Origin: a virus
DNA: 24,846 bases
UHGV virus genome: UHGV-1599541
Strand: one strand, 5' to 3'
The notes under the pieces are model-generated. The model had not been told where the DNA came from. It made no database searches and saw nothing but the letters and a program-made list of their open reading frames with translations. Positions 6,567 through 24,846 of this stretch are shown here, one piece after another. The translations under genes and the position numbers were made by a program. The number at the start of each line of letters is the position of its first letter. The first letter of the stretch is position 1.

Positions 6567-6583
6567 CCTGCTCTAATAAATTT
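6567..6583 (+). promoter_or_regulatory. C1 repressor operator-like 17-mer (Op51-like) upstream of c4/icd/ant
   Basis: CCTGCTCTAATAAATTT matches the asymmetric P1 C1 operator consensus ATTGCTCTAATAAATTT at 15/17; near-identical copies at 8231-8247 and 22930-22946. Confidence 0.6.
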
Positions 6584-6769
6584 GTATTTTTAAGTCGAAA
6601 ATGCTATCTTTTCGCTTCATATTGACCTTTTAATCGTTCAGGCTTATAGTTCCGCCGTCGTAGCAAATTCTACGACCGGGTTTAGCAGCCTGAATACTCA
6701 TGCGGACAACCGCAGATATCCGATATTGCGGTATTTTTGTGTCCGTAAACCACGTTACGCCCAAATTAT

Positions 6770-6846
6770 GGTGGGGCGTGATGGGGAGGCTTCGGCCTGC
6801 TGGTTTCATGAGTACCAGTCTGCTAACCCCGTCACGTCCTGCCACC
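6770..6846 (+). ncRNA. c4: c4-type antisense repressor RNA (boundaries approximate)
   Basis: Stem 6800-6804/6814-6818 with 9-nt loop TTCATGAGT (6805-6813) complementary to ACTCATGAG at 6879-6887, which covers the icd SD. Adjacent CTGCTAA (6820-6826) is complementary to GTTTAGCAGC, present upstream (6680-6689) and downstream (6848-6857). No long ORF on this strand; a GGC-TTCG-GCC tetraloop hairpin lies at 6788-6797. Confidence 0.5.
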
Positions 6847-6896
6847 CGTTTAGCAGCGGGTAGCAGGTTGTTAATTCAACTCATGAGGCCGTAACT

Positions 6897-8230: not shown

Positions 8231-8247
8231 TTTGCTCTAATAAATTT
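8231..8247 (+). promoter_or_regulatory. C1 operator-like 17-mer (Op53-like) upstream of kilA-repL
   Basis: TTTGCTCTAATAAATTT, 16/17 to the C1 operator consensus; about 70 bp upstream of the kilA ATG. Confidence 0.6.
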
Positions 8248-10288: not shown

Positions 10289-10470
10289 TACAATCGTTGC
10301 GGGTGCTTGAGGCTATCTGCTTCAGGCATTACCCGAAAAGCAGATAGAAGAAAGCCCCAGATAACATTACGCGTCCTGCAAGACGCTTAACATTAATCTG
10401 AGGCCATATCTATGCTTAGCATACGTAGATTAACCCTCTCCCATTTTAAGGAGCAAGGAATTTTTTACTG

Positions 10471-11103
10471 CTATGCCGCATTTCCAATTATGGATTCAGC
10501 GACCAGAACAACCCCATGCTTACTTCGATCTGGGTGTTCACTCCATATCTCGGATTCAGGAATACTTACCCCGTCATAGCAAACACGTTCGCCGTCAAAC
10601 GGGTAATACTGAGCGGCATCGGTGTCGAGGATAAACACTTTTAGCTCGGAAGAGCGACGGGCGATGTGTTGCCAAAGAGCTTTTCCACCTTCGTATTGCT
10701 CATTATCACTGAGCAAAACAACACCAGCCTTTGAGGCTACGGTTTCGTAAACAAAAGTAGCTAAACCGACATCCCGGACAGTTCCATCAACCACGATACC
10801 TTCAATCTGGGCAACATCGCTATCCTCCCAGAACTTCCTTACCAGTACGCCTTCAAGCTGCGGGCGACGTTGAAGTTCAAGAGTAGCGACAACCTTATGC
10901 CGCATATCACCATCGATAACAGAAGGCGCAGCCTCTATTACAGCTGCAAATGGGGTTTTGGAATCCCATATAACCTGGTAAAGCACACCCTGGATGGTAA
11001 CTCCGTCCAGGATCGAAAATCGACGAGCGACAGTACCCGGGGAGTACGACATTGGAATCACAGCCATTTTAGAGTCCCCCTTTAACAGTACAGGCACAAA
11101 CAT
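10471..11103 (-). CDS. Hypothetical morphogenesis-operon protein (210 aa)
   Basis: ORF track; last gene of the minus-strand operon; the real start may be the internal Met (MAVIPMS...). Confidence 0.5.
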   Translation of the reverse strand: MFVPVLLKGDSKMAVIPMSYSPGTVARRFSILDGVTIQGVLYQVIWDSKTPFAAVIEAAPSVIDGDMRHKVVATLELQRRPQLEGVLVRKFWEDSDVAQIEGIVVDGTVRDVGLATFVYETVASKAGVVLLSDNEQYEGGKALWQHIARRSSELKVFILDTDAAQYYPFDGERVCYDGVSIPESEIWSEHPDRSKHGVVLVAESIIGNAA

Positions 11104-22929: not shown

Positions 22930-22946
22930 ATTGCTCTAATAAATAT
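22930..22946 (+). promoter_or_regulatory. C1 operator-like 17-mer in a divergent promoter region
   Basis: ATTGCTCTAATAAATAT, 16/17 to the C1 operator consensus; lies between the minus-strand operon start (22848) and the plus-strand small-ORF start (23018). Confidence 0.6.
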
Positions 22947-23017
22947 TGTTTTTTGTGTCGTGTTTTCGATACCATTCAGCCATCGCCCTTCAATGGGCAT
23001 TTGTTTGGAGTCGTCAA

Positions 23018-23302
23018 ATGCAGATGGAGCTAATAAGCCGCAAGGAGTTCGATAGCCGTGTAACCAGCGGTGAACTCGACAACTTGCAGGCTATCAAGGT
23101 GAAAGAAGGCTTTTGCCTCATTGGGAATCAGAGCGGAACAAATCGCGTTTTTATGCTTCGCCGTACGGATTTGAAGCCATTTGTCTGGAAGAACGAAATT
23201 GGTCCCAGCTCATACGCTCAAACGAGGGGGTGCCACAACCTGGCCTTTTTCTACAAAGACGAGCTTTCTGTGGTTGATATTCAAGGGTTACAACATGTTT
23301 AA
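23018..23302 (+). CDS. Hypothetical protein (94 aa) upstream of the RdgC homolog
   Basis: Track ORF 22946-23302; start placed at ATG 23018 (SD TGGAG 8 nt upstream); overlaps the next gene start by 8 nt. Confidence 0.5.
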
Positions 23303-24200
23303 GCACTGGAAAAACATTACTATTTATAAACTTTCTCGTGAGGCGGATCTGACCGACTTAGAAGATAAAAAGAAAATGATCCTTTTCACGCCATGCGGTA
23401 GTCAGGATATGGCCAAGTTCGGTTTTGTATCGCCATTTGGTGATAATTCCGAAGTTATCGCTATGCATGGAAATGGTTTTATCCTTGTTGAAGCAAAGCG
23501 CGAAACAAAAATTCTTCCCCCGCCGGTTATCCAGCGAGCTATTCAAGAAAAAATTGAAAAACTTGAGCAAGAACAAGCGCGTAAACTGAAGAAAACAGAG
23601 AAGGACTCCCTGAAAGACGAAGTTCTGCATTCTCTTCTGCCACGGGCTTTTTCAAAGTTTTCTGTTATCCAGGCGATCTACGACGGTTCAACTAAACGTA
23701 TCTATATCAATGCCAGCGCGCGGCAGGCAGAGGATATGCTCGCGCTTATGCGTAAGTCTCTGGGTTCTCTTCCTGTTGTTCCCCTGAGTGTTGAAAATCC
23801 CATTGAATTAACGCTGACCGACTGGGTACGTGATGGTAGTGCTCCACAGGGATTTCAAATGGGGGATGCGGCAGAACTTAAGGCAGTGCTTGAGGATGGC
23901 GGTATTGCCCGAGTGAAAAAGCAGGATTTGGGAAGCGATGAAATTTCCACACACCTGGAAGCTGGCAAGCTCGTCACTAAGTTGGCACTCGACTGGCAGA
24001 ACCGCATTAAATTTACTCTGGACCATAACTTCAGCCTTACCAGCGTCAAATTTGCGGATGAATTGCTTGAGCAGAACTCTGATATTGATAGTGAAGATGT
24101 TGCGCAGCGACTGGACGCAGATTTCTTCCTGTTGACCAGTGAAATTTCGTGCCTGGTTGATGCTCTGGTAAATGCCCTTGGTGGAGAGGCTAAGCAGTGA
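23295..24200 (+). CDS. hrdC: RdgC homolog (recombination-associated DNA-binding protein), 301 aa
   Basis: From internal ATG 23295 (SD AAGGG), the protein aligns along its length with E. coli RdgC as I recall it ([73 protein letters not shown]). Confidence 0.85.
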
Positions 24201-24846
24201 AAGAGCTGTGCTATGGATCTGTTTGCAGTGGAATTGAAGCCGCGAGTATTGCCTGGGAACCGTTGGGTATGCGTCCGGCGTGGTTTGCTGAAATCGAGCC
24301 TTTTCCATCAGCCGTTCTTGCGCACCGCTGGCCCCATGTCGCCAACCTTGGAGACATGACAAAACTTGCCAAAAAAGTCCTGGCAGGGGAAATCGAATCC
24401 CCTGATGTGCTCGTCGGGGGAACACCTTGTCAGGCATTCAGTATCGCGGGATTACGTGGTGGGCTTGATGATGAGCGTGGCGCGCTAACTTTAAAGTATG
24501 TGGAGCTTGCAAATGCAATTGACGACAAACGGGCTGAGTCATTTCTCAAACCAGCCGTTATCGTCTGGGAAAATGTCCCAGGAGTCTTGTCATCGGCAGA
24601 TAATGCCTTCGGATGTTTCCTTGCCGGATTGGCTGGAGAAGATGTGCCATTTGAACCAGGTGATCGACCTGAATCAGGAAAAAGTAACGCGTTCTGGCGG
24701 TGGGATGGCAAAACCGGTTGCCATGCTCCAAAGTGGCCGCAGTGTGGTTGTATTTATGGACCGCAGCGAAAGGTGGCCTGGAGAATCCTTGATGCCCAAT
24801 ACTTCGGAGTGGCACAACGACGCCGACGCGTGTTTGTTGTCGCAAG
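24197..24846 (+). CDS. C5-cytosine DNA methyltransferase, N-terminal 216 codons (continues beyond window end); GTG start
   Basis: Frame translation from GTG 24197 (SD GGAGAGG 24183-24189): motif I-like GSVCSGIEA, motif [14 protein letters not shown], motif VI ENVPG, motif VIII QRRRRVF. Start overlaps the RdgC-homolog stop (GTGA). Not in the ORF track, which omits ORFs lacking a stop in the window. Confidence 0.8.

Follow-up and report, generated by a model that had tools for sequence, protein, structure and literature searches.

The end of the viral genome UHGV-1599541, a stretch of 24,846 nucleotides (nt) that was analyzed as a whole and is called the window below, carries three closely packed genes, and the locus raises the question of what unit these genes form, how this unit is controlled, and whether its DNA-binding protein and its DNA methyltransferase act together. 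A reading made from the sequence only had described a small open reading frame (ORF), a homologue of RdgC, and an orphan C5-methyltransferase, and had proposed that they coordinate recombination and DNA modification. According to our analysis, with a probability of about 93%, the region belongs to a P1-like phage-plasmid (Punavirus) and covers the 5′ two-thirds of its uhr-hrdC-dmt operon, which C1 represses in lysogens and which is turned on during lytic growth. The region is already known: an early lytic operon with these genes in this arrangement has been part of the P1 annotation since publication of the genome, and the annotation can be transferred straight from P1.

This assignment is supported by sequence identity at several scales. 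A megablast search with the region revealed 98 to 99% identity to phages P1, P7, and RCS47 and to other Punavirus records, and the region was found in 574 of 5,426 complete Escherichia coli genomes, nearly always on plasmids of ~90 to 100 kb. The whole window, which extends from sit and the tail genes through parAB and repA to dmt, is ~96% identical to P1, and its best matches among phages, E. coli genomes, and plasmids reached 96 to 97% identity. The similarity to P1 along the entire window, together with the C4 RNA of P1 immI detected with Rfam, identifies the window as a piece of a P1-like phage-plasmid; with ~96% overall identity, this element is a mosaic P1-like plasmid distinct from P1 itself. 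For the operon, the P1 record in GenBank (AF234172, positions 65145 to 68676; annotation of Lobocka et al. 2004) served as the reference. P1 and the window share the operator, the promoter, the order and start codons of the genes, and the overlaps, and at the homologous positions the curated record lists Odmt (formerly Op68), the σ70 promoter Pdmt, uhr, hrdC, and dmt. Uhr and HrdC of the window are 100% and 99.7% identical to the proteins of reference P1, respectively, and residues 1 to 216 of Dmt are 98.1% identical. The features are compiled in Table 1.

Table 1. Positions of the control elements and genes of the uhr-hrdC-dmt region in the window.
Feature	Position	Strand	Details
C1 repressor operator Op68/Odmt	22930..22946	+	ATTGCTCTAATAAATAT; one mismatch to the C1 operator consensus
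Promoter Pdmt	22946..22975	+	−35 TTGTTT (22946-22951), 18-nt spacer, −10 TACCAT (22970-22975)
uhr	23018..23302	+	ATG 23018; stop TAA 23300-23302; 94 amino acids; GGAG 7 nt upstream
hrdC	23295..24200	+	ATG 23295; stop TGA 24198-24200; 301 amino acids; AAGGG 7 nt upstream
dmt (codons 1-216 only; runs off the window)	24197..24846	+	GTG 24197-24199; GGAGAGG 7-10 nt upstream

The control region corresponds to that of P1 in every element. The 17-bp operator is identical to the annotated P1 operator and occupies the same position, and its sequence is kept in 74 of 82 related loci. These 82 loci, to which the counts given below refer, comprise 80 loci from IMG/VR found with HrdC, P1, and the closest plasmid. 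In the window, three sites resembling the C1 operator were detected, compared to 0.18 expected; the other two 17-mers are located at positions 6567 to 6583 (two mismatches) and 8231 to 8247 (one mismatch). Op68/Odmt abuts the −35 hexamer of Pdmt and shares one base with it. Pdmt was placed by positional homology to the annotated σ70 promoter of P1, and its −35 and −10 hexamers are identical to those of P1; a consensus promoter scan, for which it is too weak, did not report it. The consensus scan for promoters and terminators revealed no promoter and no convincing terminator between uhr, hrdC, and dmt, which is why we infer a single transcript from Pdmt.

The presence of an operator identical to that of P1 and of Pdmt upstream of the genes predicts that the unit is repressed in lysogens and on in lytic growth. 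Specifically, C1 bound at Op68/Odmt next to the −35 region of the weak promoter Pdmt would keep the operon off in the plasmid prophage, whereas upon induction or infection a single transcript carrying all three genes would be initiated at Pdmt. For P1, dmt has been reported to be controlled by C1 and strongly induced in lytic development, as determined by reverse transcription-quantitative PCR (PMC4713147), and the transcriptomes of P1vir show a joint response of hrdC, dmt, and uhr. Since the operon is repressed by C1 in lysogens, the methylome of lysogens, which had been suggested as a test of the methyltransferase, would probably be uninformative.

At the gene junctions, the coordinates and overlaps given in the sequence-only reading were all confirmed. 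The genes uhr and hrdC overlap by 8 nt (ATGTTTAA), and the stop codon of hrdC overlaps the GTG start codon of dmt at position 24197 by 4 nt (GTGA). This GTG is the only start of dmt upstream of methyltransferase motif I, because an in-frame TAA is located at positions 24191 to 24193; the next in-frame methionine is residue 25, past motif I. From there, the dmt frame is open for 216 codons up to the end of the window. The absence of dmt from the ORF list had been ascribed to its GTG start and to its running off the window; the second explanation holds, as ORFs of this kind are unlisted, and the GTG start is not the cause. Short overlaps of start and stop codons are common in phage operons, and the two found here are not statistically remarkable in themselves. 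The 94-residue uhr and its 8-nt overlap with hrdC are kept in all 82 loci and the GTGA junction in 81 of them, which by itself is weak evidence, because these loci are nearly identical to one another. An antisense ORF at positions 23808 to 24437 (209 amino acids) was treated as spurious; it has no family match and is not annotated in P1.

With respect to translation, the overlaps ATGTTTAA and GTGA may allow ribosomes that terminate at one gene to restart at the next. RNA structure masking the starts of hrdC or dmt, which would provide a basis for obligatory coupling, was not found; the z-scores of the start regions were between +0.3 and +1.8, i.e., these regions showed rather less structure than shuffled controls, if they differed at all. 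Each of the three genes has its own Shine-Dalgarno sequence. Own Shine-Dalgarno sequences and unburied starts indicate that any coupling would be of the termination-reinitiation type rather than obligatory. The proposal of a tight three-gene unit holds.

A more informative comparison is provided by a second, diverged P1-like lineage, which was found via a Uhr protein with 65% identity and in which HrdC and the Dmt N terminus show 79% and 74% identity, respectively. This lineage keeps an operator-like site upstream and the same ATGTTTAA overlap; its second junction is TGATG, with an ATG start for dmt, and its Dmt proteins of 774 to 863 amino acids combine a C5 and a Dam domain. As gene order and tight junctions are kept across 21 to 35% protein divergence, the trio represents a stable module of the P1 family. 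In the diverged lineage, dmt is followed by an additional gene for a 205-residue protein without Pfam match, which overlaps dmt by 1 nt and extends the operon (L083:9717-10334, also in L084 to L086); in L083 and L084, it is followed in turn by a gene with a Sequestin domain.

HrdC is a member of the RdgC family, as the sequence-only reading had supposed. It matches the Pfam family RdgC (PF04381) with an E value of 5.6e-98 and 328 bits (cut-off 25) over positions 3 to 298 of the 298 positions of the profile, and NCBIfam model NF001462 with 379 bits (cut-off 330), whereas with 420 bits it stays below the cut-off of 501 of the E. coli-type equivalog NF001460. It can be aligned over its full length with E. 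coli RdgC (PDB 2OWL; E = 2.9e-113) and is roughly two-thirds identical to the host protein. E. coli RdgC forms a ring-shaped dimer, binds DNA nonspecifically, and inhibits RecA functions. The residues of its dimer interface and those involved in DNA loading that were tested by mutagenesis have been listed (PMC2965237), and in the alignment with 2OWL all ten are identical in HrdC, i.e., the gate residues R118 and F120, the horseshoe residues Q212, E218, H222, and K227, and the fingertip residues R97, K98, K100, and K101. We infer that HrdC is a bona fide RdgC family member and a DNA-binding protein of the ring type. By homology to the host protein, HrdC would most likely form an RdgC-type ring dimer on duplex DNA and, on phage DNA that is being replicated or is present as concatemers, most likely damp the action of RecA and RecFOR. 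In contrast to E. coli RdgC, HrdC is encoded by a phage and, under repression by C1, would be expressed only in lytic growth.

Uhr, which is labeled “unknown protein function” in the P1 record, has no match in Pfam or NCBIfam, and all homologues found belong to P1-like elements, either of E. coli or of Salmonella. AlphaFold2 predicted a small α/β fold with a mean confidence (predicted local distance difference test) of 82. A comparison of this model with the PDB gave no significant match; the best weak ones, to ribosomal proteins and the FtsH N-domain, had E values of at least 2.5e-3 and template modeling (TM) scores of at most 0.54. The label “nucleoside triphosphate pyrophosphohydrolase” carried by Uhr in PHROGs and in RefSeq phage records was rejected, as it is supported by neither Pfam nor NCBIfam nor by a significant match in the PDB.

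The part of Dmt encoded in the window is the N-terminal part of a C5-methyltransferase, again in agreement with the earlier assignment. It matches the Pfam family of C-5 DNA methylases (PF00145; E = 3.6e-29, 102.7 bits, cut-off 22), contains the Pro-Cys of motif IV, ENV of motif VI, and motif VIII (QRRRRVF), and differs from P1 Dmt by four substitutions over residues 1 to 216. The window and 81 of the 82 related loci have intact C5 catalytic motifs. No endonuclease gene is adjacent, as had been stated; the designation as a plain orphan C5-methyltransferase nevertheless falls short, as the window covers the front half of a bifunctional enzyme with a C5 and a Dam part. P1 Dmt has 754 residues, with an N-terminal C5 domain and a D12-class Dam domain at residues 493 to 725; its C-terminal half matches E. 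coli Dam structures with E = 8e-57 and contains the DPPY motif. In relatives, the Dam domain was found with Pfam in representative alleles encoding proteins of 672, 754 (P1), 807, 862 (plasmid p3), and 1,095 amino acids. The sequence-only reading had recommended a check for a fused N6-adenine domain, and a D12/Dam domain is indeed present C-terminally in P1 Dmt and in representative intact relatives. Dmt of the window is thus predicted to be a two-domain bifunctional enzyme in which a C5 core is followed, past the end of the window, by a Dam-type N6-adenine domain for GATC. This architecture differs from that of E. coli Dam and T4 Dam (D12 class, GATC), since in Dmt the Dam domain is fused behind a C5-methyltransferase.

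The documented role of Dmt concerns its Dam activity. According to two papers (PMC12707154 and PMC11437467) that cite Sternberg and Coulby 1990, pac cleavage and productive growth depend on GATC methylation, which can be provided by either host Dam or phage Dmt. By methylating the GATC sites of pac, the Dam domain would enable cleavage by the phage packaging enzyme, and this activity would make the phage independent of host Dam. For the C5 half, protective methylation of progeny DNA against restriction would be the most likely role.

Three features of dmt were noticed in relatives, none of which is present in the window. In ~20 of ~80 related loci, 341 additional residues split the PCQ motif exactly between Pro77 and Cys78, the catalytic residue. 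The insert starts with CFTAGH and ends with VVHN, followed by Cys, and matches the Pfam families Hint_2, LAGLIDADG_3, and Intein_splicing, which identifies it as an intein with a homing endonuclease. Examples are L027:4903-8190 (insert at codons 78 to 418) and L087:5029-6051 (RCS47), the latter being annotated merely as “DNA methyltransferase.” The intein is also present in 152 complete E. coli genomes; among the eight matches listed, all carry an annotation as dmt or as LAGLIDADG endonuclease. A search of the literature collection available yielded no paper on an intein in P1-like dmt. The window carries an intein-less allele, with the empty site located between positions 24427 and 24428.

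A second variable region lies between C5 motifs VIII and IX (residues ~247 to 420 in L001, L002, L006, L048, and L083 to L085), ~30 codons past the end of the window. It occurs in at least seven lengths of 74 to 276 residues, and the differences concern whole cassettes; for example, one dmt allele equals another plus an insert of 88 amino acids. The cassette alleles result in Dmt proteins of 672, 754, 807, 862, and other numbers of residues. This pattern suggests shuffled recognition domains conferring different or multiple C5 specificities. Multispecific C5-methyltransferases of temperate Bacillus phages (SPR and phi3T type) likewise have a single C5 core and a cassette-variable region between motifs VIII and IX; the Dmt cassettes resemble these enzymes in pattern, not in membership. 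A further difference affects motif IV, where the laboratory P1 reference alone has a tryptophan at position 74 (VLVWGTPCQ; L001:5517-5519, codon 74 in AF234172), and the window (positions 24416 to 24418) as well as the 81 other loci in the scan have the consensus glycine (GGTPCQ). The laboratory allele G74W may be defective in C5 methylation, which could explain the absence of a record of 5-methylcytosine (m5C) for P1. Taken together, intein, cassettes, and G74W suggest that diversifying pressure acts on the C5 half.

Several observations weigh against the interpretation of the region as a functional lytic operon of the P1 type. The CRISPR interference (CRISPRi) results for uhr, hrdC, and dmt, all of which were nonessential in a wild-type (Dam+) host (PMC10695390) and are dispensable for plaque formation, leave HrdC and Uhr without a phenotype that would assign them a role. 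Motif I of Dmt reads CSGIEAAS and thus departs in its core, SGIEAA, from the FxGxG consensus, with Glu and Ala in place of the second and third glycines; this form is invariant in 81 loci and may be a variant of the subfamily. The P1 record, which labels dmt as a bifunctional gene for methylation of N6 of adenine in GATC, attributes C5-cytosine methylation to it only with a “perhaps.” Independent initiation at the three genes, with their own Shine-Dalgarno sequences and starts not buried in structure, would work as well as coupling. Moreover, the window contains only the first 216 codons of dmt and stops short of the target-recognition region, motifs IX and X, and the Dam domain, and in two of the 82 loci dmt is interrupted after 58 to 61 codons (L072:4903-5079 and L062:4903-5088) by a frameshift or an assembly error. 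The last two points could be taken to mean that this dmt copy is a pseudogene or a truncated remnant of a decaying unit, and a single shorter product of 565 amino acids among the relatives could be added to them. We regard such decay as very improbable: over the 216 codons in the window, the frame is open, all expected motifs are intact, and only four substitutions relative to P1 are present, one of which restores the consensus glycine of motif IV. Most relatives, 79 of the 81 that could be scored, are intact as well, one of the 82 loci lacking the dmt start and the 81 scored ORFs comprising 78 products of 565 to 1,148 amino acids, the two early stops, and one gene cut by a contig end. Apart from the 565-residue allele, these full-length products have 672 to 1,148 residues. 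The 650 nt of dmt in the window are 98 to 99% identical to alleles of every length class and consequently do not predict the class to which this allele belongs.

Two further explanations concern what the unit does. HrdC might act like RexA of phage lambda, which has an RdgC fold, i.e., instead of antagonizing RecA, it might bind DNA to take part in superinfection exclusion or to lock the lytic decision. RexA, which is structurally related to RdgC, shifts the lambda switch toward lysis, a role of this type has already been proposed for RdgC homologues of lambdoid phages, and hrdC is placed directly behind a C1 operator; unlike rexA, however, hrdC is repressed in the lysogen, and the P1 annotation contains no RexB-like partner, so that we consider a RexA-like function improbable. 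The proposal from which this study started, namely, that an orphan C5-methyltransferase and an RdgC-like protein form a joint module for anti-restriction and control of recombination, appears unlikely in this form. It is in line with the lack of an adjacent endonuclease gene, the C5 catalytic motifs intact nearly throughout the relatives, the likeness of the cassettes between motifs VIII and IX to those of protective multispecific methyltransferases of Bacillus phages, and the cotranscription of the genes with conserved junctions. On the other hand, neither m5C activity nor an anti-restriction phenotype is on record for Dmt, which is documented to serve pac cleavage and packaging through Dam methylation; the known anti-restriction system of P1 is the virion-borne Dar system; and Dmt is bifunctional instead of a plain C5 orphan. 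HrdC has no mechanistic tie to methylation on record, and apart from cotranscription no functional connection of HrdC to Dmt has been reported. Separate from such a joint module, an anti-restriction role of the C5 half of Dmt is possible. The reading of the region as the C1-controlled uhr-hrdC-dmt operon accommodates a protective C5 half of this kind next to the Dam function.

Outside of the operon, the window contains two sets of RNA elements. The P1 immI elements identified with Rfam, i.e., the C4 antisense RNA and its a1/b1 targets, are located at positions 6644 to 6696 and 6764 to 6849 on the plus strand. A full-length sok antitoxin RNA (Rfam, 97 bits) is present at positions 10301 to 10475 on the plus strand and is overlapped by a hok-like ORF of 55 amino acids at positions 10412 to 10579. 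Reference P1 is not known to contain a hok/sok addiction module, and the site probably falls within one of the segments of the window not matched by P1.

The window itself represents a textbook P1 operon and adds little that is new, and the Dam fusion and the expression restricted to lytic growth already answer part of the questions raised earlier. Its relevance lies in the family to which HrdC, Uhr, and the C5 half of Dmt belong, as phage-plasmids of this family are found in about one-tenth of the complete E. coli genomes. It is a possibility, if a doubtful one, that the wild dmt alleles with GGTPCQ encode an active, cassette-swapping, multispecific, and protective C5-methyltransferase, a possibility that concerns sequence past the end of the window. 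If this is true, the missing report of m5C for P1 Dmt would be an artifact of the laboratory strain, the enzyme encoded by about one-quarter of the alleles would have to be freed by splicing from the intein at its catalytic cysteine before becoming active, and the conserved cotranslation with an RdgC copy would make the unit a DNA protection module for lytic replication.
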